Positions 7,698 through 61,606 of a stretch of DNA of 64,000 nt are shown here, piece by piece. The stretch is from a virus (Duplodnaviria; Caudoviricetes), in IMG/VR virus record IMGVR_UViG_3300021426_000001; one strand, written 5' to 3'. Position 1 is the first letter of the stretch. Every line of letters begins with the position of its first letter. The notes under the pieces were generated by a model. It had not been told where the DNA came from. It made no database searches and was given only the letters and a program-made list of their open reading frames with translations. A program made the position numbers and the translations under genes.

Positions 7698-7735
7698 CAC
7701 GGAGTTATCGGAAATTTCTTCGGCTTTATCTTTCG

Positions 7736-7819
7736 TCCTCACGACAGGACTCGAACCTGTACCTCCTTGCGGAGAGCGGTCCCTGAAACCGCCGCGTCTA
7801 CCAATTCCGCCACGTGAGG
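7736..7819 (-). tRNA. tRNA-Leu(CAG)
   Basis: Cloverleaf, long variable arm, loop TTCAGGG. Confidence 0.9.
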
Positions 7820-7824
7820 AAATA

Positions 7825-7908
7825 TCTCCAGAGAGGGACTCGAACCCTCACGCCCTTTCGGGCACCAGCCCCTCAAGCTGGCGCGTCTACCAATTCCGCC
7901 ACCTGGAG
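7825..7908 (-). tRNA. tRNA-Leu(GAG)
   Basis: Cloverleaf, loop TTGAGGG. Confidence 0.9.
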
Positions 7909-7913
7909 TAAAA

Positions 7914-8048
7914 TCAAGATTCATTTGGATCGGACCGCTCCCTTTAACCACTTGGTTATCCCTCCCCGTATGGAGGGAGACAGGATTCGAACCTGCGAAG
8001 GCGCAATGCCAGCGGTTTTAGAGACCGTGAATTGCTGGATGAATCTTT
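7914..8048 (-). ncRNA. CAGCAA-stem RNA copy 1, carrying circularly permuted Tyr-like tRNA with CUA anticodon
   Basis: AAGATTCAT/ATGAATCTT terminal stem, CAGCAA; tRNA 3' half precedes 5' half. Confidence 0.75.
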
Positions 8049-8050
8049 AG

Positions 8051-8123
8051 CAGGGACTGAGAGGCTCGAACTCCCGACATGCAGTTTTGGAGACTGCCGT
8101 TCTACCAGCTGAACTAAATCCCT
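8051..8123 (-). tRNA. tRNA-Trp(CCA)
   Basis: Cloverleaf, loop CTCCAAA. Confidence 0.92.
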
Positions 8124-8379
8124 AAAAGTTATCTCATACGTTGATTTAGCGTTTGTTCTATTCCCATAGAACCGTTCAAGAGAATGTGACGAGCAGTTCT
8201 CTTTTTAGCATCGAACTACCAAGCTAACTATCTTGCTCCTGACTTAAATCTTTCATCAGTCCTCAGATAGCGTTTTTCCGATTTCCGTCAGGACCCAATG
8301 TCCTTCGATGGCATGTTGCAAAGGAGACCCACGTCGCTTCTAATGGTAATCTCATTTGCGCTTCATCGGGAAGCTTTAA

Positions 8380-8450
8380 TTGCCCGTAATGGAGTCGGAC
8401 CACTGCCAAGTGATTCAGAGTCACCTATACTACCGCTATACGAACGGGCA
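8380..8450 (-). tRNA. tRNA-Gln(CTG)
   Basis: Cloverleaf, loop CTCTGAA; T-loop variant TCCGA. Confidence 0.8.
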
Positions 8451-8457
8451 GAAAATA

Positions 8458-8529
8458 TCCCAAAGCAGAGAGTTGAACCCTGTCCAACAGCTTCACATGC
8501 TGTTATGCTACCGTTACACCACGTCGGGG
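8458..8529 (-). tRNA. tRNA-His(GTG), atypical acceptor
   Basis: Loop ATGTGAA; acceptor mismatch, no G-1:C73. Confidence 0.65.
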
Positions 8530-8537
8530 ATAAAAAG

Positions 8538-8610
8538 TAGTCCCAAGGGGAATCGAACCCCTATTACCGGATTGAGAGTCCAGCGTTCTAGGCCGTTAAA
8601 CTATGGGACC
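8538..8610 (-). tRNA. tRNA-Glu(CTC)
   Basis: Cloverleaf, loop CTCTCAA. Confidence 0.9.
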
Positions 8611-8615
8611 AAAAG

Positions 8616-8736
8616 TCAAGATTCCTTGTTAACTGGGCTCGAACCAGCGACCTCTCGTCTTTGCGACGAGCGCTCTACCAACTGAGCTACAATGCATAGA
8701 AATGGCTGCATAGGATAGAGTTGCTGAGGAATCTTT
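8616..8736 (-). ncRNA. CAGCAA-stem RNA copy 2 with tRNA-like D/anticodon/T cargo
   Basis: AAGATTCCT/AGGAATCTT stem, CAGCAA; GCTCAGTTGGTAGAGC D arm, GCAAA-looped anticodon arm, T arm, no acceptor stem. Confidence 0.7.
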
Positions 8737-8739
8737 TAG

Positions 8740-8810
8740 AGCGTCGTACCGGGGTCGAACCGGTGACCTCTGATTGGAAGTCAGAAATTTTACCGCTAAA
8801 CTAACGACGC
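8740..8810 (-). tRNA. tRNA-Gly(TCC)
   Basis: Cloverleaf, loop CTTCCAA. Confidence 0.88.
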
Positions 8811-8815
8811 ATAAA

Positions 8816-8900
8816 CGAGATAGAGTTGTCGGATTTGAACCGGCTTGCTTTGATTTTTTGATCATCATTGTGTATCCAAAGAATTTGCTGGATCTATCTC
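8816..8900 (-). ncRNA. CAGCAA-stem RNA copy 3 with T-arm cargo
   Basis: GAGATAGA/TCTATCTC stem, CAGCAA, GCCGGTTCAAATCCGAC T-arm-like hairpin. Confidence 0.65.
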
Positions 8901-8904
8901 TTAG

Positions 8905-8975
8905 AGCGCCTATCGGGAATCGAACCCGAAACTCCACCATGGCAAGGTGGCTTGTTACCATTACACTATAGGCGC
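8905..8975 (-). tRNA. tRNA-Gly(GCC)
   Basis: Cloverleaf, loop TTGCCAT. Confidence 0.88.
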
Positions 8976-8991
8976 GTATGTTTAATTTTAG

Positions 8992-9084
8992 AAGCGGGAC
9001 TGGGATTCGAACCCAGGGAGGGTAGGGTCACTACCCCCGACGGTTTTCAAGACCGCTGCAATAAACCAGCTCTGCCACCCCGCC
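8992..9084 (-). tRNA. tRNA-Ser(TGA)
   Basis: Long variable arm, loop CTTGAAA. Confidence 0.88.
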
Positions 9085-9243
9085 ATGACCAGCTTAAAGT
9101 TTCCTTCTATCCCTAAGCGTCGGGAGCTGATTGACTCATTCTTTTCAATAACTCTGCCTAGCAGAGAGTCTAGAATTTGAGACCTGTCGGACTTAGAACA
9201 TCACCTTCTGCAGCAGATGATGAACGAACTTCCGCGAACGTAG

Positions 9244-9332
9244 AGGCGGGTGCAGGATTCGAACCTGCGGGGCCTTTTTGGAGGCCCTTCTCGTTAGCAC
9301 CGAGACGGTTTAGACCACTCACCCAACCCGCC
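9244..9332 (-). tRNA. tRNA-Ser(GCT)
   Basis: Long variable arm, loop GTGCTAA. Confidence 0.88.
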
Positions 9333-9395
9333 ATAAAATAAAGCCGAAATTTCAATCTTCTGATCATCATCTCGGATGATCGATCTTAATATAGG

Positions 9396-9403
9396 TATTT
9401 ATA
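9396..9403 (-). promoter_or_regulatory. late promoter TATAAATA for tRNA sub-operon
   Basis: Exact motif upstream of leader motif and tRNA-Ser. Confidence 0.5.
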
Positions 9404-9451
9404 CCGAAGTAAAAATTCAACCAGTCGAATTTTATACCGAAGTCAAATTTG

Positions 9452-9564
9452 TCAAGATGTCATACTTATGGCTCCCGGGGTTGGAATCGAACCAACTTCT
9501 TCCGCATCAAGTGCGGTGCTCTCCTCTAGAGCTACCCTGGAAAAGAGTTGCTGTTGGCATCTTT
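9452..9564 (-). ncRNA. CAGCAA-stem RNA copy 4 enclosing a whole tRNA-like cloverleaf with CCA (9469-9541)
   Basis: AAGATGCCA/TGACATCTT stem, CAGCAA; cloverleaf with 5-nt anticodon loop CTTGA. Confidence 0.7.
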
Positions 9565-9583
9565 AGGAGAAGTTCTCCATTAG

Positions 9584-9667
9584 AGCTACCAGTAGGACTC
9601 GAACCTACGAAGGCTTGCGCCAGCAGTTTTGCAGACTGCTTCCTTTGCCGCTCGGATTCATGGCAGC
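9584..9667 (-). tRNA. tRNA-Cys(GCA) with long variable arm
   Basis: Loop CTGCAAA, U73, variable arm GGCGCAAGCC. Confidence 0.75.
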
Positions 9668-9678
9668 ATATTTGTTAG

Positions 9679-9752
9679 TCTTCCGCCCAGGATTCGAACC
9701 TGGATCAAGGGCTTCGTAGGCCCGTATGCTGAGTCCATTACACCAGCGGAAG
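9679..9752 (-). tRNA. tRNA-Arg(ACG)
   Basis: Cloverleaf, loop CTACGAA. Confidence 0.85.
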
Positions 9753-9765
9753 AAAAAATTAACTA

Positions 9766-9849
9766 TCGGGCCACGAGGAGTCGAACCTCTCCGCACCGCC
9801 CTGGATTTTAACGGCCCGGGTTATGAGTCCGGCCCAAGGTAATGGCCCG
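9766..9849 (-). ncRNA. D-arm-less tRNA-like RNA, anticodon CAT
   Basis: CGGGCCA/TGGCCCG acceptor, CTCATAA loop, T arm; D arm replaced by ~9 nt; enlarged variable region. Confidence 0.55.
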
Positions 9850-9866
9850 ATTCAGTCTTTAGTAAG

Positions 9867-10133
9867 TTATCGGCTGCTTCTTACGGACATTCTAGCTAGG
9901 TGCTGGAAGGTATTTCTCGCGTAGCCGTATTTCTGCCAGTTCTCACGTTCTACGCTGTTGTATGTGTTGTAGATGTGAGCGAAAGTGACTATCACTGGCA
10001 TCGGATCAATTCCTCTTTGACGACGAACCTGAAGCTGATAGTTGAGCATATCTTCGATCTCTTGGCGTCTCTTGTCAGTCTCAGATTTATTGAGCTTGAA
10101 GAGTTTTACTTCTTCTTTCATAAAGTTCTCCAT
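9867..10133 (-). CDS. hypothetical protein within tRNA island
   Basis: 88-aa ORF exactly filling a gap between tRNAs. Confidence 0.55.
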   Translation of the reverse strand: MENFMKEEVKLFKLNKSETDKRRQEIEDMLNYQLQVRRQRGIDPMPVIVTFAHIYNTYNSVERENWQKYGYARNTFQHLARMSVRSSR

Positions 10134-10144
10134 TTTGAAGTTAG

Positions 10145-10228
10145 TCCCCGCGACAGGACTCGAACCTGTACGTCCTTTCGGACACCTGATCCTAAGTCAG
10201 GCGCGTCTACCAATTCCGCCACGTGGGG
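10145..10228 (-). tRNA. tRNA-Leu(TAG)
   Basis: Loop CTTAGGA, long variable arm. Confidence 0.9.
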
Positions 10229-10236
10229 AAATATAG

Positions 10237-10309
10237 TGGGGCCCCTCGGAGTCGAACCGAGATCTCCGGATTTTCAGTCCAGCGCATTGACCACCTCTGC
10301 CAGAGCCCC
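10237..10309 (-). tRNA. tRNA-Phe(GAA)
   Basis: Loop CTGAAAA. Confidence 0.9.
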
Positions 10310-10314
10310 AAAGA

Positions 10315-10444
10315 TCAAGATAACATTTCTTAGGAAGCCGAGTCCTGAACCACTAGACGATGGACCCCATACGGATCCAGCTGGATTCGAACCAGCGTTA
10401 CGGCCTTGGGATTTAAGAAAAGATAAATTGCTGTTGTTATCTTT
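10315..10444 (-). ncRNA. CAGCAA-stem RNA copy 5, carrying circularly permuted Glu/Asp-type tRNA body
   Basis: AAGATAACA/TGTTATCTT stem, CAGCAA; order T arm, acceptor closed by a loop, D arm. Confidence 0.75.
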
Positions 10445-10452
10445 TAAGAGTT

Positions 10453-10522
10453 TCAAGATCCGTCTTTTCAACGTAGTCTGATTACCAATCGGATGTTGTA
10501 AGTGATTTGCAGTATGGATCTT
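10453..10522 (-). ncRNA. CAGCAA-stem RNA copy 6 with Thr(GGT)-like anticodon hairpin
   Basis: AAGATCC/GGATCTT stem, CTGCAA; TCCGA-TTGGTAA-TCAGA. Confidence 0.65.
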
Positions 10523-10527
10523 ATTAG

Positions 10528-10602
10528 TCTCCCCTCAGGGATTCGAACCCCGGTTTTGCCTGTTTGTAAGACAGGTGCCATAACCAGCTAGGCGAAGGAG
10601 AG
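10528..10602 (-). tRNA. tRNA-Val(TAC)
   Basis: Loop CTTACAA. Confidence 0.88.
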
Positions 10603-10745
10603 ATATGGACCTCTCATTCAGTTTCCCAAATGTGTACATAGAAGTCCAGCCAGTTTTCCATAAGCCCGAGCCCAGATTGAACTGGCAGAAACAGGTTCCT
10701 CGAGCATCACGACTTCTTTCATCCGTAGGACAAGAGAAGCGTTAG

Positions 10746-10819
10746 TCCTCATCCCTGGACTCGAACCAGGAACCTCCGCCTTATCAGAGCGAAGCGCTAA
10801 CCAATTGCGCCAGATGAGG
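10746..10819 (-). tRNA. tRNA-Ile(GAT)
   Basis: Loop CTGATAA. Confidence 0.9.
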
Positions 10820-10831
10820 ATAGAATATTTA

Positions 10832-10905
10832 TGGGAGTACCGAGACTCGAACTCGGATCCACAGATTAAGAGTCTGCTCGTCTAAACCGATTGACATATA
10901 CTCCC
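10832..10905 (-). tRNA. tRNA-Lys(CTT)
   Basis: Loop CTCTTAA. Confidence 0.88.
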
Positions 10906-11017
10906 GAAACACGAATGAGATGAAGATGATGTGTGAGATCCATCGATCTCCAGCTCAAACAATTTAGTTAAACTTGCGTTAGTAAACTCTTTTTCAAGTT
11001 AGTAAACTTCTGTTTCG

Positions 11018-11091
11018 TCCCGGTAGATGGATTCGAACCAACGACCTGCGGATTATGATTCCGTCGCTCTGACCAGCTGAGCTATACCGGG
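11018..11091 (-). tRNA. tRNA-Met or Ile2 (CAT)
   Basis: Loop ATCATAA; elongator-type body. Confidence 0.85.
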
Positions 11092-11159
11092 CTAAATTCC
11101 ACTGGCAGTTTGTGAGATACTGCCTAAACTCCTGAGGGCTACCTCAGAAAGCTAAAATC

Positions 11160-11233
11160 TCAAGATAGAGTGGCCTTACGCCACGAGCCTCAAAGAAATG
11201 GTGAAGTTGGTTGTGATTTGCTGTATCTATCTT
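11160..11233 (-). ncRNA. CAGCAA-stem RNA copy 7
   Basis: AAGATAGA/TCTATCTT stem, CAGCAA. Confidence 0.65.
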
Positions 11234-11240
11234 AAAAGTG

Positions 11241-11346
11241 AAGAGCGATCTCCCTCGAACTCGTCGCAGTAGCTAGTCATCTAATTCGAAGTGTTGCAGG
11301 AGGTGTGTTAGGACTATCGGCCGCGAACAGCCTCCGAGTTGCTCTT
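11241..11346 (-). ncRNA. candidate three-way-junction RNA
   Basis: Stems AAGAGC/GCTCTT, GGAGG/CCTCC, CTTCGAATT/AGTTCGAGG. Confidence 0.45.
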
Positions 11347-11348
11347 AG

Positions 11349-11423
11349 TAGTTCCATCCGGTGTCGAACCGGATTCTCCTGGTTGAAAACCAGACGACCT
11401 AAACCAACGTAGTCTATGGAACC
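11349..11423 (-). tRNA. tRNA-Glu(TTC)
   Basis: Loop TTTTCAA. Confidence 0.85.
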
Positions 11424-11434
11424 AAAATGTTTAG

Positions 11435-11563
11435 CGCCAGACGGAGGAATCGAACCTCGTTTCCGTTTCATTGCAACTTCGACGGACTTTTGATCGAGAA
11501 GCACCAACGTATCAGCATCGCCGAAGTGTTGCAACCTCCATTGACGCCTATCTCGCATCCAGC
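11435..11563 (-). ncRNA. tRNA-like RNA (acceptor and T arm) with long internal hairpin
   Basis: GCTGGATG/CGTCTGGC, GAGGTTCGATTCCTC, TTGCAACACTTCGGCG/CGTCGAAGTTGCAA. Confidence 0.5.
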
Positions 11564-11573
11564 ATAAAGAGTT

Positions 11574-11644
11574 TCAAGATGGTGGGGCTAACCCCAGAAT
11601 TCGAATTGCAGGCGAATGATTTTGAGAATCGCTGAACCATCTTT
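11574..11644 (-). ncRNA. CAGCAA-stem RNA copy 8
   Basis: AAGATGGT/ACCATCTT stem, CAGCGA variant. Confidence 0.6.
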
Positions 11645-11648
11645 TTAG

Positions 11649-11721
11649 TAGCGCCATCGGGATTCGAACCCGAGTTCCATGAATGAAAATCATGTGTCCT
11701 AGGCCTCTAGACGATAGCGCC
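11649..11721 (-). tRNA. tRNA-Glu(TTC)
   Basis: Loop TTTTCAT. Confidence 0.9.
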
Positions 11722-11730
11722 ATAATTTAG

Positions 11731-11807
11731 TAGCGGGTCCGGGAGTCGAACTCCGGTATCTCAGAGGTTATGAGCCTCGAATGGTATATCCGTTCCACTC
11801 ACCCGCG
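11731..11807 (-). tRNA. tRNA-fMet-like (CAT)
   Basis: Starts CGCGGG, unpaired 1:72, loop CTCATAA. Confidence 0.75.
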
Positions 11808-11894
11808 ATAAAACCGGTGGAATTGAAGGTTAGAAGACCTATGACGTCGTGCCTTCAGTTCGATCAATTCCCTTGACCTATTAGTCTTTGTCCT

Positions 11895-11968
11895 TGGCTC
11901 CTACCGGATTCGAACCGAATGTCTGCCGTCTTCTCGACGGCCGTCCTAGTCCACTAGACGAAAGAGTC
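11895..11968 (-). ncRNA. tRNA mimic, Glu/Asp-type body, anticodon loop replaced by GAGAA
   Basis: GTCTAGTGGACTAGGAC D arm; GCCGTC-GAGAA-GACGGC; T arm. Confidence 0.55.
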
Positions 11969-11994
11969 AATTTCGTGACCGTAAGTCAAATTAG

Positions 11995-12068
11995 TCGGGC
12001 ATGCAGGATTCGAACCTGCGACATCTTGCTCCCAAAGCAAGCGCTCTACCAGACTGAGCTAATGCCCG
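11995..12068 (-). tRNA. tRNA-Pro(TGG)
   Basis: Loop TTTGGGA. Confidence 0.92.
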
Positions 12069-12069
12069 A

Positions 12070-12600
12070 AAATGGAAAGAAACGTTTAACTTCCCGTGTC
12101 CTCGACTACCTCATCCGAGACCTAGTCTCAGAGCCCAATTAGCGGCAGTGTTGAACTTTTCTCGACCTGGGTCTTGGGAACCTAGGCGAACGAATTTTGG
12201 TTTAACCCTTTCGAGATGGACTTATGAAGGTAATGCCCTCGCCTTCTCTATTCAGGGATTCATATCGGCGTTCGGACTCTCACCGAACCTATTTCTTGGA
12301 ATTCCTTGACCAGCGATATGATCAGTCCGACCGTTGACGAAATTGCTGGGATTTCGCGCCCAGCCCGATCGGATTTTTGACAGCACTACGGATCTCACGT
12401 AGATCTTTACCCACCTATGGTCTGTTTCGGCAGCAGAACTGCCAAAGAGTAACCGCCCTATACTTAAACCCTCTAGAAAAGCTTGTTCTAGGACTTGCCT
12501 ATCGTCGTCCCTGTCTCAATCAGACTCGAACTGATTTCTCTGCCACGATTGACAGCGTCTTTATCCGGAAGACCTTTTTGACAGTTTCTATTGTCAGCCG
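12070..12600 (-). ncRNA. candidate large structured ncRNA (~530 nt)
   Basis: No credible ORF; many hairpins with T-loop-like loops between tRNA-Asn and tRNA-Pro. Confidence 0.55.
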
Positions 12601-12604
12601 TTAG

Positions 12605-12677
12605 CTGTCCCACCAGGACTCGAACCTGGGACTAAGGCATTAACAGTGCCCTGATCTACCAACTGATCTATGGGACA
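12605..12677 (-). tRNA. tRNA-Asn(GTT)
   Basis: Loop CTGTTAA. Confidence 0.9.
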
Positions 12678-12748
12678 ATAGAAAAATTAAAGCCGAAATT
12701 TCAATTTGCGGATCCTTCTCTCGGAAGGTCTCTTATTTTGATGTTCAT

Positions 12749-12777
12749 AATATAGAAAAGAATTTGCGGTTCGTAAA
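12749..12777 (-). promoter_or_regulatory. early promoter with A-rich UP element for tRNA operon
   Basis: TTTACG-17-TATATT; phased A tracts upstream. Confidence 0.7.
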
Positions 12778-12858
12778 CCCTTTTTCTTAAAAATTTTTGA
12801 ATTTTTTTGAAAAAGTTCTTTTCCGTAATGATCATCATCACAGATTTAGTGATTTTAG

Positions 12859-12931
12859 CGCTGGAAGAGGGAATCGAACCCCCAACCGCCTGATTACAAA
12901 TCAGGTGCTCTACCTATTGAGCTATTCCAGC
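12859..12931 (-). tRNA. tRNA-Thr(TGT)
   Basis: Loop TTTGTAA. Confidence 0.9.
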
Positions 12932-12959
12932 AGAACGTGAGCTTATTGACCTCGTCACT

Positions 12960-13037
12960 TCGGAAATGCTGGAATCGAACCAGCGTCTTCTGCCCACTGG
13001 GGTGCAGCTTCACTTGGCCTTGCTATGATAACTCCCG
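12960..13037 (-). ncRNA. tRNA mimic or pseudo-tRNA, Pro-type acceptor, aberrant anticodon arm
   Basis: CGGGAGT/ATTTCCG, T arm GCTGGTTCGATTCCAGC, no U33 loop. Confidence 0.5.
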
Positions 13038-13145
13038 ATCAAAGGGTTTATCTCACGTAATTTCAATAGCGCTGGAACCAAGAGTCGGAAGAATTATCTC
13101 GAGACTTCTTCCTCCAGTCAGTTCCTCCATGAATCAATTTTCCAG

Positions 13146-13215
13146 CCGATCAACCAGGATTCGAACCTGAATGCGGACAGTCACGCCCTCGCTCTACCAG
13201 TTGAGCTACTGACCG
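13146..13215 (-). ncRNA. tRNA mimic or pseudo-tRNA with 6-nt anticodon loop
   Basis: Intact D arm GCTCAACTGGTAGAGC and T arm; GGGC-GTGACT-GTCC. Confidence 0.5.
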
Positions 13216-13241
13216 AACTGGGCCATATCATCATGAACTAG

Positions 13242-13315
13242 TGGAGACGATGAGAATCGAACTCATCACAGAATCCTTGCTAAGGACTCTCGCCGCCTTG
13301 GTAACATGCATCCCC
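13242..13315 (-). tRNA. tRNA-Ala(AGC)
   Basis: GGGGATG/CGTCTCC with G3:U70, loop TTAGCAA. Confidence 0.75.
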
Positions 13316-13321
13316 AAAATT

Positions 13322-13380
13322 TCAAGATCCGTTTTTATTCTGCCAAAATAGAATGTTTGTAGAGTTGCAGTATGGATCTT
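13322..13380 (-). ncRNA. CAGCAA-stem RNA copy 9
   Basis: Ends identical to copy 6 (AAGATCCATACTGCAA...ACGGATCTTG), different cargo hairpin. Confidence 0.65.
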
Positions 13381-13385
13381 TTTAG

Positions 13386-13471
13386 TGCCTAGTGAAGGAT
13401 TCGAACCTTCAAAGCCCGTTAGGGCGGGAGATTTACAGTCTCCTGGTGATCACCATCCCACCAGACTAGGC
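13386..13471 (-). tRNA. tRNA-Tyr(GTA)
   Basis: Loop CTGTAAA, long variable arm. Confidence 0.88.
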
Positions 13472-13827
13472 GTGTTCTCACGGATCGACGTTGCCATCTT
13501 TATAGACGCTCCGAATAGATTTCGTCTTTACGATCGGACATATTGAGAGGTTACTTCCGACTGACCTTTCCCAGAACAGGATTGGTGGAAAGAAAGTGAA
13601 TTGAAACAGAATCAAAGCCCGTCCAGTTTGCTTATGCCTGTGCTCTCCACTGGATCGTGTCATCCTTACTCCATCTTACCTTTGCGCGTTTTTCAGATGG
13701 GCTTCAGAAGATCAACCGAGCTCTGCCCTCCATGAGATCTCAACGGCGGAGTAAACAGTGCATACGGTAGCGGTTCAAGACTGTCAAAGTCAATCTCTTG
13801 AAGCCGTTTCTCTTCATTTTCTAGTAG

Positions 13828-13901
13828 CGATACCTGAGAGATTCGAACTCTCGAATGTCGGTTAGACAGACCGATGTGTTTGGCCACTTCACCAAGGTAC
13901 C
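13828..13901 (-). tRNA. tRNA-Asp(GTC)
   Basis: Loop CTGTCTA. Confidence 0.85.
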
Positions 13902-13913
13902 AAAAATTTGTAG

Positions 13914-13984
13914 CGGTCTCAACGGGTCACGATCCCGTATCTTCGGCGTGACAAGCCGATATTCATCCATTAAACTATGAGACC
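13914..13984 (-). tRNA. tRNA-Asp(GTC)
   Basis: Loop TTGTCAC; atypical T-loop ATCGTGA. Confidence 0.75.
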
Positions 13985-13998
13985 AAAATATAGTGTAG

Positions 13999-14071
13999 CG
14001 CTGGAAGAGAGACTTGAACTCCCAACCTTCTCATTACGAAAGAGTTGCGCTACCAATTGCGCCATTCCAGC
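13999..14071 (-). tRNA. tRNA-Thr(CGT)
   Basis: Loop TTCGTAA. Confidence 0.88.
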
Positions 14072-14172
14072 AATTGTTAAATGGTGGCAGATTGCCTCCT
14101 CCTCAGTCATGCCTAGGAAACCTTGGGAGACAAGATTAAATCCAATGATGATCAATCATTAACTGCCTTTAG

Positions 14173-14245
14173 TGCCTCAAGAAGGACTCGAACCTTCAAC
14201 CCACTGATTAAGAGTCAGCTGCGCTACCAATTGCGCCATTGAGGC
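14173..14245 (-). tRNA. tRNA-Lys(CTT)
   Basis: Loop CTCTTAA. Confidence 0.9.
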
Positions 14246-14264
14246 ATAAAGAAAAAGAAGTTTG

Positions 14265-14375
14265 CGATTGATGATGGGCGATTCGAACCTCCCACCTCCA
14301 CCTTGGATCCAGTGGCGCTCTTCCGTGAGGTCCCTGTCTTTCGACTGGCAGTTTCCTCTAAGCTAATCAAGAATC
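14265..14375 (-). ncRNA. degenerate tRNA-like RNA with ~40-nt structured insert in D loop
   Basis: T-loop GTTCGAATC, GCTT/GAGC D stem around GTCGAAAGAC hairpin. Confidence 0.35.
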
Positions 14376-14615
14376 ACTTGACGAAATTTCCAGACTTACT
14401 AGATCATCCAGACGCTTCGTCCATTTTCTTTTTTGTAGATCGATCTCACCGTGATGACCCGGCAGGTCACGGTCCTTGCTATATCCTTCCTCACAGTTAT
14501 GATACCGTGAACAAGGTGCTTGTCTAAGACATCAGATATACTAAGATCAGTTCCAGACTTGTACTTCGCTTGGGTTGCTGGTCGTTTCAACCTGACTCGT
14601 TCTTGATCGATTTAG

Positions 14616-14689
14616 TGGACACAGACGGGAGTCGAACCCGTGATCTCCTGAGTGCAAATCAGGTGCCTTACCAACTAGGCTACTGGCCC
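14616..14689 (-). tRNA. tRNA-Ala(TGC)
   Basis: Loop TTTGCAC. Confidence 0.8.
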
Positions 14690-14762
14690 AAAATTTAAGA
14701 AAAGCCGTTTTGTTAAGTTGCAGATCTTATTCTCGATAGGATCTTGTTTTGTTGATGATTCA

Positions 14763-14791
14763 AATATAGATAAAAGTATTTGAGTCGTAAA
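14763..14791 (-). promoter_or_regulatory. early promoter with UP element
   Basis: TTTACG-17-TATATT; upstream A tracts nearly identical to 12780-12812. Confidence 0.7.
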
Positions 14792-14837
14792 CCCCTTTTC
14801 TTAAAAATTTTTGAATTTTTTTTGAAGAGAGGTTTTA

Positions 14838-14910
14838 TTGGGCAGGACGGATTCGAACCGCCGATCCCGAGTTCAAAGCCCGGAGCCTTAACCAACTTGG
14901 CTACTGCCCA
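14838..14910 (-). tRNA. tRNA-Gln(TTG)
   Basis: Loop CTTTGAA. Confidence 0.9.
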
Positions 14911-14916
14911 GTGCTA

Positions 14917-14990
14917 TGACCGAAGAGAGATTCGAACTCTCGCTTGTGGGATTTTAAGTTCCGTGCCTCTGCCAGTTGGGCTATTCGGCC
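14917..14990 (-). tRNA. tRNA-Leu(TAA), short variable loop
   Basis: GCCCAACTGGCAGAGGC D arm, loop CTTAAAA. Confidence 0.75.
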
Positions 14991-14996
14991 AGAAAG

Positions 14997-15164
14997 TTAG
15001 TAGTCGTAAGTTTCCTTCTCGACTTTCTTCTCTCGGACGACCTTGATGCCCGACTGTCTCGCCATAGACTTAGCGAGCTTACGGCACTGATTCCAGCGCT
15101 GTTCGTTCATAGCTCTGATCTCGTCTTGGCTTAATTGTTGCTTTTTGCTCTTTTCTTTGATCAT
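14997..15164 (-). CDS. small basic hypothetical protein (55 aa)
   Basis: MIKEKSKKQQLSQDEIR... with GGAG RBS between tRNAs. Confidence 0.55.
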   Translation of the reverse strand: MIKEKSKKQQLSQDEIRAMNEQRWNQCRKLAKSMARQSGIKVVREKKVEKETYDY

Positions 15165-15197
15165 CGGATTTCTCCAAAAGTTGTTTGTGTTTATTTA

Positions 15198-15269
15198 TGG
15201 GTCAACCGGGACTCGAACCCGGACCCGAAGATTAAAAGTCTCCTCGACTACCAATTATCATATTGACCC
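15198..15269 (-). tRNA. tRNA-Lys(TTT)
   Basis: Loop CTTTTAA. Confidence 0.85.
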
Positions 15270-15273
15270 GTAG

Positions 15274-15346
15274 TACCCAACCCGGGAGTCGAACCCAGAT
15301 TAGAGGTTTAGAAGACCCCTGTTCTATTCCATTGAACTAGTCGGGC
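15274..15346 (-). tRNA. tRNA-Arg(TCT)
   Basis: Loop CTTCTAA. Confidence 0.88.
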
Positions 15347-15353
15347 AGAAGTT

Positions 15354-15662
15354 CTACTTCTTGGCGCTGAGATCGCGGATCTTCTTCAGATCGAACTTCA
15401 TAGCCGGGTAGATGCAGAACCCAGATTGACCAAAGCGTTCAATCGGTTTTGCGAGCCCAGCAGATTCGAGCTGCTGATCCAAGTCAGGCCAGTTGTTCGT
15501 ATCGACGAAAGCTTCGTCAGATCCGAGCTTCTCAGACTGTCCCTCCAGATAGATGGTGCAGACTCCGTAAGTAGAGCCATCTTTGTTGTTAGCCATGACG
15601 GCGAGGGTGTTGCCGTATTCATAGCGTGAGCGGACGAGGTCCAGAGATTTGATACTCTTCAT
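15354..15662 (-). CDS. DUF4313-like protein
   Basis: AFVDTNN and SGFCIYPAMKFD motifs. Confidence 0.65.
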   Translation of the reverse strand: MKSIKSLDLVRSRYEYGNTLAVMANNKDGSTYGVCTIYLEGQSEKLGSDEAFVDTNNWPDLDQQLESAGLAKPIERFGQSGFCIYPAMKFDLKKIRDLSAKK

Positions 15663-15696
15663 TTTAATTTGATCCTGTTGAAGTTGAACAGATTTG

Positions 15697-16044
15697 TTAG
15701 TTGATTCCTAGGAGCTTGTCGAAGTCCTTGAGGTGCTCCGGCTGTTCCTTGTATTCATAGCGGTCAGCGCAGACAGAAGTTCCGAGCCAGGTCTTCATGT
15801 TGTTGGTCCACCAAGAGTCGCCGTCCACGTAGTCATAGCGTTTCGGGTAGCGGTGAACCTTGTCATAGAGATCCTTCATGAACTTCTCCCCCTCTTCGAC
15901 AGAAGAGACTTCCACTTCCACGCAGTCATCTGGGAACCAAGCTCCGACAGAAGTGAACTTAGCAGTCGGATTGAGCGCCTTAGCAGCTTCCGTGATTTCC
16001 TTGTAAGCGTGAGTGTTGCCGATGAATACGACTCTGAATTTCAT
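15697..16044 (-). CDS. hypothetical protein
   Basis: ORF after early promoter 16076-16104 with AAGGA RBS. Confidence 0.7.
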   Translation of the reverse strand: MKFRVVFIGNTHAYKEITEAAKALNPTAKFTSVGAWFPDDCVEVEVSSVEEGEKFMKDLYDKVHRYPKRYDYVDGDSWWTNNMKTWLGTSVCADRYEYKEQPEHLKDFDKLLGIN

Positions 16045-16075
16045 GATCAATTCCTTGTTGAAGTTTTACATAATC

Positions 16076-16104
16076 AATATAGGTATTTATGTCGATTTTG
16101 TAAA
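16076..16104 (-). promoter_or_regulatory. early promoter
   Basis: TTTACA-17-TATATT. Confidence 0.7.
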
Positions 16105-16125
16105 CCCTCTTTTGAAGAATTTTAG

Positions 16126-16198
16126 TCAGCGTAAGAGGATTCGAACCTCCGACCTCGCCGCCCCGAACGGTGCGCTCTACCAGCTGAGCTATACGCTG
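16126..16198 (-). tRNA. tRNA-Pro(CGG)
   Basis: Loop TTCGGGG. Confidence 0.88.
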
Positions 16199-16209
16199 AA
16201 ATGATGTAG

Positions 16210-16283
16210 CTGGGAGGGCAGGACTCGAACCTGCAACATCCTGGTTAACGGCCAGGCGTTCTACCGATTAGAACTACGACCCA
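16210..16283 (-). tRNA. tRNA-Asn(GTT)
   Basis: Loop CCGTTAA; acceptor mismatch. Confidence 0.75.
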
Positions 16284-16294
16284 ATGAAAATTAG

Positions 16295-16368
16295 TGGAAA
16301 CGGTGGGAATCGAACCCACCACAGCCTGATTGCAAGTCAAGCTCGCCTCCTTGGTAACATGCATCCCC
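16295..16368 (-). tRNA. tRNA-Ala(TGC)
   Basis: G3:U70, loop CTTGCAA; same unusual 5' end as 13242 copy. Confidence 0.8.
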
Positions 16369-16377
16369 ATAAGATAG

Positions 16378-16450
16378 TCAGCGTAGCGGGATTCGAACCC
16401 GCGATCTCATGATCCCAAATCATGCGACTTACCAGCTAGCCTATACGCTG
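16378..16450 (-). tRNA. tRNA-Pro(TGG)
   Basis: Loop TTTGGGA. Confidence 0.88.
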
Positions 16451-16459
16451 ATTATATAG

Positions 16460-16534
16460 TCGATCGGGAGGGATTCGAACCCATCACTTTGCAGGTTTTG
16501 AATCTGCTGCCTCTGCCAGTTGGGCTACCGATCG
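16460..16534 (-). tRNA. tRNA-Leu(CAA), short variable loop
   Basis: Loop TTCAAAA, Leu-type D arm. Confidence 0.75.
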
Positions 16535-16604
16535 AAAAGATAAAGCCAAATTGTCAAACATCTGATGCGCTTCTCGAGCGAACCATTTTAGATCTTCTCA
16601 AAAT

Positions 16605-16632
16605 AAAAGAGGAAGTCTTTGTGACTTCCTCT
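16605..16632 (-). terminator. intrinsic terminator after leader ORF
   Basis: AGAGGAAGTC-ACAAA-GACTTCCTCT-TTT. Confidence 0.75.
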
Positions 16633-16660
16633 CGTTCTCCTTCAAAGATCGGATTGGAAG

Positions 16661-16798
16661 TCAACTTAGCGGATCTGCTGGCTTGATAGCATTGAATCTT
16701 GGATCAATTGCTCTCAAGTCGAGATTTTGACCGCAATATTCGCGAACTGCCGGTGTGGCCGGTGCGAAAGATTTGAATGTTGTTGCGGTCAGTGCCAT
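16661..16798 (-). CDS. putative leader peptide (45 aa)
   Basis: MALTATTFKSFAPATPAVREYCGQNLDLRAIDPRFNAIKPADPLS; AAGGA RBS, TATAAATA at 16818-16825. Confidence 0.55.
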   Translation of the reverse strand: MALTATTFKSFAPATPAVREYCGQNLDLRAIDPRFNAIKPADPLS

Positions 16799-16892
16799 TG
16801 TTGTTATCCTTTTGTATTATTTATACACGTTAAATATATAAATTTTTTGCTTTTTCCGCAGATTTTTTGAAAAAATTTGCAGATTTTTTTAG

Positions 16893-16965
16893 TAGTCCCG
16901 GGCGGAGTCGAACCGCCGTTTCTGCCTTGAGAGGGCAATGTCCTAGGCCACTAGACGAAGGGACC
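16893..16965 (-). tRNA. tRNA-Glu(CTC)
   Basis: Loop CTCTCAA. Confidence 0.9.
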
Positions 16966-16976
16966 AAAATTTGTAG

Positions 16977-17050
16977 TAGCGCCATCGGGACTCGAACCCG
17001 AATTTCCAGCTTGAGAGGCTAGCGAACTGAACCAGTTATTCGATAGCGCC
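16977..17050 (-). tRNA. tRNA-Glu(CTC)
   Basis: Loop CTCTCAA. Confidence 0.88.
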
Positions 17051-17149
17051 ATATTGAGTACAGTTTCATTCTTTTACGGCTACCCGCCGTAGCGGACCGA
17101 GGAATGCTCACGCCAAGCAGAAACTGAAAAACAATAACCGCGTGTGTAG

Positions 17150-17223
17150 TGATCCGAGCAGGATTCGAACCTGCGACCTGATGCTTAGAAGGCATCTGCT
17201 CTATCCAGCTGAGCTATCGGACC
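17150..17223 (-). tRNA. tRNA-Arg(TCT)
   Basis: Loop CTTCTAA. Confidence 0.92.
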
Positions 17224-30965: not shown

Positions 30966-32159
30966 TTACGGCAAGAAGTGTTCTGAGACCTTAGTCCAGT
31001 ACTGTTCCGTCATTTCACGGACTCTCTTGCCAAATTCGGGACCGGGCTTGACGCCCTCTTTGAAGACGAGATCAGAGATCTTCTTCGTGTCGGGCTGGAA
31101 GCCCTTAGCCATTCTGAGCGATACTGGAATCGTCCAGAGCCATTCGGTCTTGTTCTGCATGATAGCGAGAACCGTTCTGTAGTCGCTGCTCACGATCTTG
31201 ACGAGTTCAGTCCAGGAGGGACGAGAGCCATATTGCAGGACGTAACGAGCCCACCTGTAGAACTTGTAGAGTCTCTTTTCATCGTTCGTCATTGTGAGCT
31301 CGGCTTCTGCATTAGCGATGTCGTCGTAAGCGAGAGCCATGACTGCGAAGACGTTGTCGTTTCTCAGATCTGAAACCAAGAGACTGTTTTCGAAAGCAGC
31401 CGTGAAGTTCATGTGTCTGAAGATCGGAATGTGCTTAACGAGATCCATCTGGTCGATGAACTGAAGGAATGTAGAGAGACCGTAGTTCTTCTTGTTGAGA
31501 GAAGTGATCTCCTTGCGGAAGCGTTCGTTAGAGATCTTGCAGAGACCTGGACCAGCGATGTTCATAGCGAGCTTCGTATCTGGATCGATCGTGAAGCCGA
31601 AGTTCGTGGCGAATCTGATGCCGCGAATGATGCGGAGAGCGTCTTCGGAGAAGCGTTCAATCGGATCGCCGACAGCTCGAATGACGCCGTTCTGAAGGTC
31701 AGCGAGACCGTTCATCGGATCGATCAAGTTGCCGTCACCGTCAAGGCCCATAGCGTTGATAGTGAAGTCGCGACGAGCGCAGTCTTCAGCGAAAGTCTTA
31801 GCGAAAGTGACCGTGTCTGGATGACGACCGTCAGTGTAGTTGCCGTCCTGACGGAACTGAGTCACTTCGAACGGATCCCCCATGCCGTAGAAGACGAGCA
31901 GAGTGCCGTGAGCTTCGCCGTTGTTAGATTCAGTTCGGAAGATCTCCTTGATCGTCGGCATCGGCATGTTAGTTGCGATGTCCACGTCGTGAATGTCGAG
32001 CATGCCAGGAATCGGAGAGATGCCGAGCTCAGACATCACGATGTCTCGAACGCAGCCGCCAACCACGTAAGCTTCGAAGCCGAGTCTACGGATTTCACGG
32101 CAGAGTTCCATGCCGCAGTGAAGAGCGTCTGAAGGGATGTGGTTAGTTTCAAATTTCAT
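30966..32159 (-). CDS. cca: tRNA nucleotidyltransferase (CCA-adding/poly(A) polymerase family)
   Basis: VGGCVRD, DVDIAT, RRDFTINAM, EDALRIIRGIRF. Confidence 0.9.
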   Translation of the reverse strand: MKFETNHIPSDALHCGMELCREIRRLGFEAYVVGGCVRDIVMSELGISPIPGMLDIHDVDIATNMPMPTIKEIFRTESNNGEAHGTLLVFYGMGDPFEVTQFRQDGNYTDGRHPDTVTFAKTFAEDCARRDFTINAMGLDGDGNLIDPMNGLADLQNGVIRAVGDPIERFSEDALRIIRGIRFATNFGFTIDPDTKLAMNIAGPGLCKISNERFRKEITSLNKKNYGLSTFLQFIDQMDLVKHIPIFRHMNFTAAFENSLLVSDLRNDNVFAVMALAYDDIANAEAELTMTNDEKRLYKFYRWARYVLQYGSRPSWTELVKIVSSDYRTVLAIMQNKTEWLWTIPVSLRMAKGFQPDTKKISDLVFKEGVKPGPEFGKRVREMTEQYWTKVSEHFLP

Positions 32160-39610: not shown

Positions 39611-39950
39611 ATTTAGTCTCCTGTTTGCATTCTCAATATAGGTAAATCTTCAGTGTTTGTAAATATGAAGTCTAAAAATTTTAGTAATTTTAGTTCGACA
39701 TCAAAGTCGTAACGCTGGAACGAAGCGCAACTCAATGCTGCTATCGGTAAGCGTGCGCCGTTCGCTAGTGAGCTCCTCTAGCATGAATGAACGAACATGG
39801 AGCATCGAAGCAGAAGAGTAGCGTCTTCTGCACACAGCCGCCATTAGCGCCTGAAGATGTAGCTGGAATACAGGATGACCGATCCATAAGCTTCAGGGTG
39901 AGTCTACTCTAAAAGGTCGACGGGCGAAGGAGTCAGCAAAAGACGTTCTT

Positions 39951-55653: not shown

Positions 55654-56025
55654 ATGGCTATGACATTTGAGCAAGCGATCGACATCCTGGCATCTGAGCC
55701 AGTCATCCTAGAGTCTAAGGGACCGAGAACGGCAGAAGACTGGAAGAAGATCTCAGAGATCTGGCTGAAGAAGAGAGACGAGCAAGTCAAGCTTCTTCAG
55801 GACAACCCTCAGTGGATCGGAAGACCAGCTGAGCTGAGCACTAAGAAGCTCATCGCCAAGTACAACGGCTACTACAAGAGAGCCCTCGAAGAGTTGAAGA
55901 ACTGCGAGGACTACGATGAGCGCATGAGAGAAGAGCAGCGCCAGGCTGACCTCGAGTGGGAGCAGCAGTGCGAGCTAGAGACGATGCGCAACTATGACTT
56001 CGATCGCGGAGACTGGAGATACTAG
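55654..56025 (+). CDS. late protein with ESAG-like motif
   Basis: MTFEQAIDILASEPVILE. Confidence 0.65.
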   Translation: MAMTFEQAIDILASEPVILESKGPRTAEDWKKISEIWLKKRDEQVKLLQDNPQWIGRPAELSTKKLIAKYNGYYKRALEELKNCEDYDERMREEQRQADLEWEQQCELETMRNYDFDRGDWRY

Positions 56026-56195
56026 GTTGAATCATGTCACTAGCGAATTGGCGAAAGATGAGGCCAGAGAACTGCCAGATGAAGAACTTCGATCCCGAGA
56101 AGGCGTTCATTAGCCTGCTGCGGACAAGATCGAACGTCAGCACTTTCTGGCTGTCTGAAGTCATACCGAGGATTCTCGGAAAGAAGAAGCTGTAG

Positions 56196-56228
56196 AAAAA
56201 GAGGATGAGAAAGATCTCATCCTCTTTT
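56196..56228. terminator. bidirectional terminator
   Basis: AAAAAGAGGATGAGA...TCTCATCCTCTTTT between convergent genes. Confidence 0.75.
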
Positions 56229-56229
56229 G

Positions 56230-57315
56230 TTATAGTTCCAGATTTAGCGCTTCATCGATAGTGTCATCCATGTCGAAGTACTTGTATTGACCGAGTCTTC
56301 CGACGAATACCACCTTATCATTCACGATCGCCTTGTACTTTTCGTATAGGGCATTATTCTTTTCATTATTGACTGGATAGTATGGGACTTCTCCCTTCTT
56401 CCATTCTGAGCTGAACTCCCTACTTACGATCGTCTTGTCGCTTCCACGGTCGTTGAACCACTTGTGTTCGATGCTTCGAGTGTATGGTTCTTCGTTTGAA
56501 GTGTAGTTGACGACAGCATTGCCTTGATAGTTCTTCTTGTCATACTCTACCGTCTCGAATCTCACTGAGCGATACTCAAGAGGTCCAAAGCAATAGTCGT
56601 AGTACTCGTCAATGCATCCCGAGTAGTAGATCTTGTCTGCCATCTTGATCCACTTCTCCTTGTCTGCCAAGAAGTCAGTGTTCAGCAAGATGTCTGCTCC
56701 ATCGAACATCCTAGCTATGAGAGCAGTGTAGCCCTCTATCGGAATGCCCTGATACTTGTCGTTGAAGTAGTTGTTGTCGTAAGTGAATCTGAGAGGTATG
56801 CGCTTGATGATCTCCGGTGGAAGCTCTGTGCACTTTCTGCCCCATTGCTTCTCTGTGTAGCCCTTGATCAACTTCTCATAGATCGTTCTGCCCACCATAG
56901 AGATCGCTTGCTCTTCCAAGTTCGTAGGGAAGCACATATTCTCTTTCATCTTCTCATTCAGAATAGCCTCTTCTGCCTGATGCGGAGTGACTACGCCGAA
57001 GAGCTTGCTGAACGTGTTCATGTTGAACGGAAGATTGTAGATCTCGTCTCTGTAGTTAGCGATGGGACTGTTTACGAAGTTGTTGAACTCACCGAACTTG
57101 TTGATGAAGTTCCAGACGTTCTCGTTAGAAGTGTGAAAGATGTGAGCGCCATACTTGTGGACATCAATGCCATCTTTTCGATATGTAAAGCAGTTGCCAG
57201 CGATATGATTGCGCTTTTCGATGACAAGAACATTCTTGCCTTTGTTGATTAGTCTCCATGCAAGGACTGCATTGAAGAGTCCTGCGCCGACTAGCAAAAC
57301 GTCATAATGCTTCAT
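56230..57315 (-). CDS. glf: UDP-galactopyranose mutase
   Basis: VGAGL, HKYGAHIFHT, FTYDNNYFND.YQGIP, PYYPVN, GRLGQYKYFDMD. Confidence 0.95.
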   Translation of the reverse strand: MKHYDVLLVGAGLFNAVLAWRLINKGKNVLVIEKRNHIAGNCFTYRKDGIDVHKYGAHIFHTSNENVWNFINKFGEFNNFVNSPIANYRDEIYNLPFNMNTFSKLFGVVTPHQAEEAILNEKMKENMCFPTNLEEQAISMVGRTIYEKLIKGYTEKQWGRKCTELPPEIIKRIPLRFTYDNNYFNDKYQGIPIEGYTALIARMFDGADILLNTDFLADKEKWIKMADKIYYSGCIDEYYDYCFGPLEYRSVRFETVEYDKKNYQGNAVVNYTSNEEPYTRSIEHKWFNDRGSDKTIVSREFSSEWKKGEVPYYPVNNEKNNALYEKYKAIVNDKVVFVGRLGQYKYFDMDDTIDEALNLEL

Positions 57316-57404
57316 TTCAATTTCTCTCTCAACAGTGTAGTTGAAATTCCTTGTGTAAATGGTAAAATCTGTGCCACCGCAATTATTACAAATAACATTC
57401 ATAC

Positions 57405-58861: not shown

Positions 58862-58866
58862 ACTTG

Positions 58867-59565: not shown

Positions 59566-59572
59566 AATATAC

Positions 59573-60223: not shown

Positions 60224-60224
60224 T

Positions 60225-61523: not shown

Positions 61524-61606
61524 ACAGTCTATTTATATCAAGTCCGATTGTTGATCGCGTGCATTCTCTGCTTCTTAAGCTCATTCTGAAAATCCATATC
61601 TTTTCC

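Follow-up and report, generated by a model that had tools for sequence, protein, structure and literature searches.

A candidate structured non-coding RNA with a tRNA-like domain in a tRNA-array spacer of a ruminant-gut phage

We analysed a 64,000-nt stretch of DNA (IMG/VR record IMGVR_UViG_3300021426_000001; hereafter 'the window') from a large uncultured phage of the ruminant gut, with a focus on the 535-nt spacer at 12069-12603, which separates two tRNA genes of a long minus-strand tRNA array. The RNA encoded by this spacer is non-coding, conserved and structurally constrained, is present in RNA libraries and is embedded in tRNA operons. Our conclusion is that it is a new structured phage RNA of narrow distribution, smaller than had been proposed: an earlier description made from the letters of the sequence (the sequence-only reading) had suggested a structured RNA of ~530 nt, of which the structured, non-coding character stands and the size does not, only ~171 nt (12203-12373) being conserved in a distant phage. 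The fuller interpretation, namely a genuine structured non-coding RNA of an undescribed family, co-transcribed and processed with the tRNAs and acting in trans through tRNA mimicry, is one which we are inclined to accept, with somewhat more belief than doubt; the mimicry step, taken by itself, is a tentative guess that is less likely than not.

Architecture of the spacer

The coordinates of the structural elements, the flanking genes and the RNA contigs are collected in Table 1. The conserved core consists of three tandem domains, of which domain 2 is tRNA-like. In domain 1 an alternative hairpin is possible as well: read from the sequence, the CGAAAU of the P2 loop is complementary to the following AUUUCG, and the two may pair with each other.

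All the hairpins and nested stems quoted in the sequence-only reading are present, in the minus-strand reading. Their loops had been described as T-loop-like. A hairpin was counted as T-loop-type if its stem had 5 bp or more, its closing pair was G-C and its 7-nt loop had the pattern U-N-N-R-A-N-N, U1 and A5 of a T-loop forming a reverse-Hoogsteen pair; by this definition the spacer contains three candidates (12518-12536, 12386-12402 and 12270-12288). Among 3000 dinucleotide shuffles of the spacer none contains three such hairpins (0/3000), one contains two and 65 contain one, and 46 kb of coding sequence contains one per strand. Two of the three T-loops are of the UGAGA type, which is unique to this spacer within the array; the stray T-loops of the other spacers are of the canonical UUCGA type. 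No similarity was found between the spacer and the other 24 spacers of the array, and a search of the spacer for a scaffold of the form RAGAT...ATCTY was negative. The proposed non-coding character was confirmed: the spacer has no open reading frame (ORF) longer than 75 aa in genetic code 11, and the frames opened by TGA=W or TAG=Q have no Pfam or PHROG match.

Outside the core, ~360 nt consist of lineage-specific flanks on both sides. The tRNA-like stretch of the 5' flank (12378-12473) can be folded as a degenerate tRNA-Arg(tct), which ARAGORN reports only at a lowered threshold and which has two mismatches in its acceptor stem. The 3' flank ends with a weak terminator-like hairpin followed by AUUUU (12069-12095), directly before tRNA-Pro; the scan that gave the promoter did not flag it. 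We read the flanks as padding derived from tRNAs, which may be, but need not be, part of the mature RNA.

Table 1. Coordinates in the window of the conserved core, its flanks, the neighbouring genes and the contigs from RNA libraries.
Feature	Position	Strand	Remarks
Sigma70-like promoter TTTACG-17-TATATT with AT-rich upstream stretch	12749-12777	-	9/12 matches
tRNA-Asn(GUU)	12604-12677	-	gene directly 5' of the RNA; 65.8 bits
5' flank, 230 nt	12374-12603	-	lineage-specific; in L004/L005, not recognisable in L006/L007; holds the next three elements
T-arm-like hairpin ATCAG-TTCGAGT-CTGAT	12518-12536	-	loop UUCGAGU
tRNA-like stretch	12378-12473	-	
T-loop hairpin CTACG-TGAGATC-CGTAG	12386-12402	-	loop UGAGAUC
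Conserved structured core, ~171 nt	12203-12373	-	three tandem domains; only part common to L006/L007
Domain 1	12326-12373	-	P1 encloses P2 and conserved single strand AAUUUCGUCAA
P1, 8 bp, TCCGATCG/CGGTCGGA	12366-12373 with 12326-12333	-	
P2, 6 bp, GCTGGG-CGCGAAAT-CCCAGC	12359-12364 with 12345-12350	-	hairpin 12345-12364; loop CGCGAAAU
Domain 2, tRNA-like	12260-12321	-	acceptor-like P3 encloses joining strand and T-arm-like P4
P3, 8-bp acceptor-like stem, TCATATCG/CGATATGA	12314-12321 with 12260-12267	-	
25-nt joining strand inside P3			invariant; contains GGAAUUCC
P4, 6-bp stem, GTTCGG-TGAGAGT-CCGAAC	12270-12288	-	G-C closed; 7-nt loop UGAGAGU (T-loop pattern U-N-N-R-A); invariant in all lineages
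Domain 3	12203-12259	-	P5 encloses P6-P8; 3' end is conserved CGAAAGGGUUA
P5, 4 bp, CCCU/AGGG	12254-12257 with 12206-12209	-	
P6-P8	12213-12248	-	variable tip
3' flank, 134 nt	12069-12202	-	lineage-specific; local hairpins; missing in L006/L007
tRNA-Pro(UGG)	11994-12068	-	gene directly 3' of the RNA; 72.3 bits
X9 contig	12097-12512	not given by contig	depth 91
X17 contig	12101-12512	not given by contig	depth 67
X16 contig	12142-12430	not given by contig	depth 24
X20 contig	12121-12423	not given by contig	depth 6
Additional X9/X17 contig	12484-12600		depth 99 (X9), 19.5 (X17)

Relatives and distribution

Relatives were obtained by using the translation of a spurious ORF, written as degenerate DNA, as a probe against the JGI metagenomes, which gave four contigs (L004-L007); otherwise, fishing through spurious ORF translations recovered only the JGI metagenome contig of the window itself (100% identity to 11709-13950). 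The rumen contigs L004 (99%) and L005 (95%) keep the full spacer between the same two tRNAs. L006 and L007 do not differ from each other across the spacer; they represent a more distant phage, whose shared tRNA genes are 78-88% identical to those of the window. By blastn they share only 12203-12356 (91% over 155 nt), extending to 12203-12373 once the diverged stems are aligned. The core, at 91%, is thus better conserved than those tRNA genes, and its central ~100 nt are nearly invariant between the window and L006/L007.

In L006 and L007 the core has a different setting: it stands between tRNA-Gln and tRNA-Ala, ends ~6 nt before tRNA-Ala and lies ~60 nt behind a predicted promoter of its own (TTTACA-17-TATATT; 10/12 matches in L006). 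Judged from these contigs, the whole core changes its place within tRNA arrays as one block. With a covariance model built from the core (R1), each contig has a single match (190-234 bits), and no further match turns up elsewhere in the window.

The sequencing runs which hold the stretch are all sheep, bovine or unspecified gut metagenomes. In a phage collection of 50,697 records, the blastn matches of the spacer were all due to the flanking tRNAs, and megablast with 22 kb of window sequence gave nothing. Neither the two motif scans of IMG/VR nor searches of it with a two-block pattern and with a flanking protein returned a real match. Contigs with a 95%-identical flanking protein end before they reach the spacer. 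Among the genome contigs of GTDB, a 17-mer gave 96 matches, none of which extends, where chance alone would give ~70; the two-block pattern had no match. The best of the GTDB matches, 24 nt in L030, falls in the end of a protein gene and was rejected.

Conservation of base pairs

Domains 1 and 2 show no change in L004, in L005 (0 changes in 122 nt) or in the strains of the RNA runs. In L006, domain 2 has three changes, one of which turns a U-A pair of P3 into U.G. P1 carries two double changes there (G-C to A-U and C-G to U-A), plus G.U to G-C. P2 has five of its six pairs replaced, with a register shift of 1 nt, and retains the loop core CGAAAU; independent minimum-free-energy (MFE) folds give the same P1 and P2 in both lineages. 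The distal hairpin of domain 3 is replaced in L005 (~18 changes in 51 nt), where P5 and the overall MFE fold are retained, P6 shows a double change from G-C to U-A and P7 gains a pair. In the machine alignment 93% of the pair cells hold standard pairs, versus 32-53% with slid partners. Double-changed pairs number 4 in this alignment vs 2.0 +/- 1.0 in shuffles, to which the re-registering of P2 in L006 adds 5. With three distinct sequences, we take the covariation as suggestive, not decisive.

The minus strand is taken as the functional one, because on the plus strand the G.U pairs (in P1 and P7, and in P2 and P3 of L006) would turn into A.C mismatches.

The flanks behave differently from domains 1 and 2. 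In L005, 12 changes fall within the 230 nt of the 5' flank, mostly in predicted loops. Among them, the loop of 12386-12402 changes from UGAGAUC to UGAAAAC, with U1, R4 and A5 retained, and the supposed U33 of the tRNA-Arg-like fold is C. The few changes of the 3' flank in L004/L005 are in loops or compatible with G.U pairing. Overall, the flank substitutions show no significant preference for loops (9 of ~16 unpaired vs ~6.6 expected), and the flanks show no clear structural constraint. The sequence-only reading had pointed to the ornate RNAs ROOL and GOLLD; a single RNA of that type was given up.

The flanks travel with the core in strains in which the array is arranged differently. In the X9 and X17 strains a contig runs from 12600 straight on to 14169, without the 1568 nt between, so that the unit lies behind a tRNA-Lys(CUU)-like gene, not tRNA-Asn. 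The tRNA array has evidently been rearranged between strains at short shared junction sequences.

Transcript evidence

Six of the 20 runs holding the stretch are metatranscriptomes. Four metatranscriptome assemblies from four studies were compared over 10000-15000, and each contains one contig lying wholly inside the spacer (289-417 nt, 99-100% identity; Table 1). In X9 and X17 other unique spacers of the array were also assembled, at depths of 3-8 versus 91 and 67 here; the depth of the spacer is 10-20 times that of most neighbouring spacers, where those are covered too. The break common to X9 and X17 (12484-12512) is taken as an assembly artefact and not an RNA end, because it coincides with strain variants. 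As RNA ends, the contig ends were rejected both at the 5' side (12512, the strain-variant break) and at the 3' side (12097, 12101, 12121 and 12142, mutually discordant).

These data are moderate evidence that the RNA accumulates and are not proof of a discrete species; we grade them no higher because the contigs carry neither strand nor RNA ends, their depth is flat and the runs were preselected. Homologs, pair-preserving changes and RNA contigs from the libraries of four studies were thus found, where the sequence-only reading had named a lack of homologs or covariation and of a transcript as grounds for dropping it.

Two other spacers of the array are also represented in the RNA libraries. 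The spacer 13472-13826 (minus strand, between tRNA-Tyr and tRNA-Asp) has contigs at 13485-13808 of even higher depth (239 in X9, 39 in X16 and 11 in X20). It has no Rfam match at E<=10 and no T-loop hairpin, is dissimilar to the 12069-12603 spacer and is largely missing in L005 (only 125 nt there). The spacer 14246-14616, between tRNA-Ala and tRNA-Lys, also has whole RNA contigs (X16, 14223-14614, depth 10; X20, 14319-14589).

Comparison with known RNA families

The spacer, the core and the L006 copy were searched against Rfam 15, once with the gathering cutoffs and once with lax filters at E<=10. The sequence-only reading could assign no family by eye and thought that the RNA may be new; the searches did not assign one either. 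ROOL (RF03087) and GOLLD (RF01998) gave no covariance-model match even at E<=10, nor did RNase P RNA or group I and group II introns; with the tRNA model (RF00005), only the two flanking genes score. ARAGORN gave nothing credible with introns, permuted tmRNA and lowered thresholds. A tmRNA was considered and rejected: ARAGORN reports none by default and nonsense tags such as EDTGS* at a 70% threshold, and there is no Rfam tmRNA match. Apart from the sub-threshold FMN match of the L006 copy treated below, the lax Rfam matches which did appear are at chance level (ceN53, nuoG, AdoCbl-II with 15 bits, and Plastid-ycf2 on the tRNAs). Since neither Rfam nor ARAGORN gives anything meaningful, ROOL, GOLLD, tmRNA, RNase P RNA, introns, Y RNA and the riboswitch classes are excluded as far as the models reach.

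Several known systems come close to the RNA. ROOL and GOLLD occur in phages or prophages, often near tRNA genes, and ROOL was first seen in rumen metagenomes (PMC12286853). They are multi-junction RNAs of 500-800 nt, whereas the conserved unit described here has ~171 nt and three simple domains. Closest in kind are RNA C and RNA D of phage T4, stable RNAs other than tRNA which are located with the tRNA genes. Their genes are in the tRNA gene region of T4 and the RNAs are shorter (about 120-140 nt); to our knowledge, a T-loop minihelix architecture has not been described for them. The location of the present RNA in a phage tRNA cluster fits this kind, and its accumulation is suggested by contigs, giving neither ends nor strand, from 4 RNA libraries. 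We found no sequence similarity to the T4 RNAs in the 50,697 phage records, T4 being assumed to be included. RNA C and RNA D are described as being 'of yet unknown functions' (PMC9697503). The present RNA would be a second, unrelated case beside those of the T4 tRNA cluster and, having a clear tRNA-like module, would offer a new handle on their function.

Domain 2 has in common with tRNA an acceptor-like stem and, stacked beside it, a T-arm-like hairpin whose loop of 7 nt is closed by a G-C pair. It differs from tRNA in lacking a D-arm and an anticodon arm, in having stems of 8 and 6 bp with a 2-nt spacer instead of 7 and 5 bp, in the internal position of its stem and in a loop without U55-C56. 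The use of the U-N-N-R-A T-loop as a building block is shared with the FMN riboswitch, T-box stem I and the elbow-docking modules of RNase P. The RNA is built from tRNA-like parts, stands outside the known families and is confined so far to a few ruminant-gut contigs.

Proposed mechanism and alternative explanations

In the mechanism that we propose, the RNA would be co-transcribed with the tRNAs from the promoter at ~12760 and, in the L006 lineage, from its own promoter ~60 nt upstream. The enzymes that process the neighbouring tRNAs would set it free from the polycistronic precursor, with RNase P cutting at the downstream tRNA and RNase Z or trimming acting behind the upstream one, to give a stable RNA of roughly 235-420 nt. 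Domain 2 would imitate the acceptor/T-arm 'top half' and the elbow of a tRNA, and the RNA would work in trans, tying up a protein or an RNA able to recognise the shape of tRNA: a tRNA-targeting nuclease of the host, or the tRNA/RNA-repair machinery of the phage. This trans-acting mimicry by domain 2 is our leading guess and a tentative one. Should the core bind a tRNA-recognising defence or repair protein, an RNA player would be added to the tRNA-centred arms race between phages and bacteria. More specifically, and rather doubtfully, the core may represent a new class of phage tRNA-shape mimic made in bulk from the tRNA operon, which soaks up a tRNA-targeting defence nuclease of the host or recruits Ro-like or RNA-ligase repair proteins of the phage to damaged tRNAs; if so, it would be an RNA-based counter-defence or a repair cofactor.

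Several results weigh against this interpretation. The acceptor-like stem is internal and not at the ends of the RNA, two bases separate it from the T-arm-like stem and interrupt the stack, and the T-loop lacks the U-C at 55-56 which tRNAs use for the elbow. Within the 64-kb window, the conserved single strands of the core have no antisense target longer than 11 nt; no partner protein for the RNA was found. The core is known from only three distinct lineages, all from the ruminant gut. The covariation is formally not significant, 36 of 500 shuffles reaching the observed number of double changes, and the RNA evidence consists of assembled contigs, which do not convey true abundance, from runs selected for holding the stretch. 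The folding energy is ordinary for the whole spacer (z = -1.1 on the minus strand, -0.8 on the plus strand) and for the core (z = -1.3). Because the folding energy of the region is not unusual, the case rests on motifs, relatives and expression and not on MFE.

Ordinary z-scores would also be expected of a functionless spacer made of decayed tRNA genes, transcribed by way of the tRNA operon and conserved only through close kinship, which we regard as an unlikely origin. The flanks do carry a canonical UUCGAGU T-arm (12518-12536) and the low-threshold tRNA-Arg-like fold, domain 2 could itself derive from the top half of a tRNA, and other spacers of the array are present in RNA contigs too. Debris of this sort should not, however, be better conserved than bona fide tRNA genes, as the core is between the window and L006/L007, nor move intact to another array position with its own promoter. 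In addition, the stems are retained through double changes, and domains 1 and 2 are invariant while the adjacent flank drifts.

The second alternative is a cis-acting element of the tRNA operon that guides or times the processing of the precursor (as a barrier to RNase E, P or Z or as their entry site) or modulates read-through, without acting in trans. This, too, we consider unlikely. It would explain why the core is always found between tRNA genes on the same strand and why it ends so close to tRNA-Ala in L006; a tRNA-like minihelix is plausible as a decoy or entry site for RNase P or Z, and the terminator-like hairpin before tRNA-Pro and the two mutually exclusive hairpins of domain 1 (P2 vs CGAAAU/AUUUCG) could serve regulation in cis. 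The core has no fixed cis partner, however, because both the downstream tRNA (Pro vs Ala) and its distance (134 nt vs 6 nt) differ between lineages. The other ~40 tRNAs of the array manage without it, and the full-length contigs in RNA libraries suggest an accumulating RNA rather than a transient spacer.

A special case of action in trans would be a Y-RNA-like partner of a phage Ro60-like (DUF2828/TROVE) protein and of RNA-repair genes, which we judge improbable. The YrlA RNAs of bacteria and phages mimic tRNA with a module containing a T-arm, some of them are cut by RNase P, and their genes lie within 4 kb of rsr (PMC4201824). The present RNA likewise has a tRNA-like module with a T-arm, and GUCCGA, the core of the Ro-contact motif GGUCCGA (PMC4201824), is found in P4; the L006 copy has it in the P2 loop too. 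Against this, the YrlA model (RF02553) has no match at E<=10 inside the spacer, its sole match (14.6 bits) being on tRNA-Pro. In known Y RNAs the Ro site is on a long stem between the 5' and 3' ends; the folds show no such stem. The RNA is not beside a Ro gene, unlike YrlA, and its T-loop, UGAGAGU vs UUCGAAU, differs from the canonical GGUUCGAAUCC.

A degenerate FMN-riboswitch-like or other ligand-sensing aptamer is very improbable. The L006 copy does match RF00050 over its full length (22.1 bits, E = 0.0046), driven by two GGUG-A-UCC T-loop hairpins and CGACGGUAU; this score falls far short of the gathering cutoff (66.2), the alignment to the model leaves out the J1/2 GGGC segment and the window copy has no match at all. 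The P1 of the model is not conserved and conflicts with the covarying P1 and the 8-bp P3 of the core, which has three tandem domains instead of a six-helix junction, and there is no downstream ORF to be regulated and no expression platform. Least probable of all is a gene for a small protein, which might use a reassigned stop codon: one metagenome gene caller gives a 126-aa product with TGA=W (P0002), but no frame has a Pfam or PHROG match, the minus-strand frame has no relative in a library of 1.84 billion proteins, substitutions track stems and loops rather than codon positions, and the coding reading is excluded because single-base indels between lineages inside the core break every frame.

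The spacers of tRNA arrays in giant phages are usually ignored; here, one of them holds an RNA which is better conserved than the surrounding tRNAs. Such a case suggests that tRNA parts in phage arrays are a source of new structured RNAs.

Genomic neighbourhood

The tRNA array extends over 7735-17223 and comprises ~45 tRNA genes, every one on the minus strand (ARAGORN, Rfam); 12069-12603 is its second-largest tRNA-free spacer. The sequence-only reading had placed the RNA behind a strong promoter and tRNA-Asn; a promoter-like site (TTTACG-17-TATATT at 12777-12749) and the tRNA gene were found there. This promoter probably heads a transcription unit running from tRNA-Asn through the RNA to tRNA-Pro and onward. 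The 90-nt AT-rich promoter region is present twice (12733-12822 and 14747-14836, 77% identical), and a 47-nt leader with a hairpin occurs in three copies directly upstream of tRNA genes (9335-9381, 12684-12730 and 16537-16583). Because the promoter region and the leader recur, the array is seen as several similar transcription units.

A gene of the CCA-adding enzyme/poly(A) polymerase family is found at 30966-32159 on the minus strand (PolyA_pol head domain, E = 1.4e-28), which fits the aligned tRNA-Pro and tRNA-Asn genes having no encoded 3' CCA.

Canonical T-arm hairpins with the loop UUCGA are also located outside the tRNA calls of ARAGORN and Rfam, at 7980-7996, 9775-9789, 10380-10396, 11444-11458, 13247-13269 and 16300-16322. 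The spacers with these uncalled T-arms seem to hold further unusual or permuted tRNA-like genes. One tRNA-like element, at 9764-9867, combines a T-arm with a matching GAGCUAC/GUAGCUC acceptor pair and carries a long insertion inside; no tRNA finder reports it, and it is 89% conserved with 852-956 of L006, from the distant L006/L007 phage. ARAGORN also reports two tRNA-shaped genes, 12959-13038 and 13145-13215, with an 'anticodon' of 4 nt and 2 nt, respectively; the Rfam tRNA model gives only 34.6 bits for 13145-13215 and does not report 12959-13038.

Elsewhere in the window, a full-length cow-rumen-2 RNA motif (Rfam) is present at 39804-39910 on the plus strand, with 98.3 bits vs a gathering score of 66. 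A low-GC island at 56000-62000 (down to 29% GC at 58-60 kb) contains genes for a UDP-galactopyranose mutase and a DUF4422 glycosyltransferase-like protein, and is probably a horizontally acquired sugar-modification cassette.

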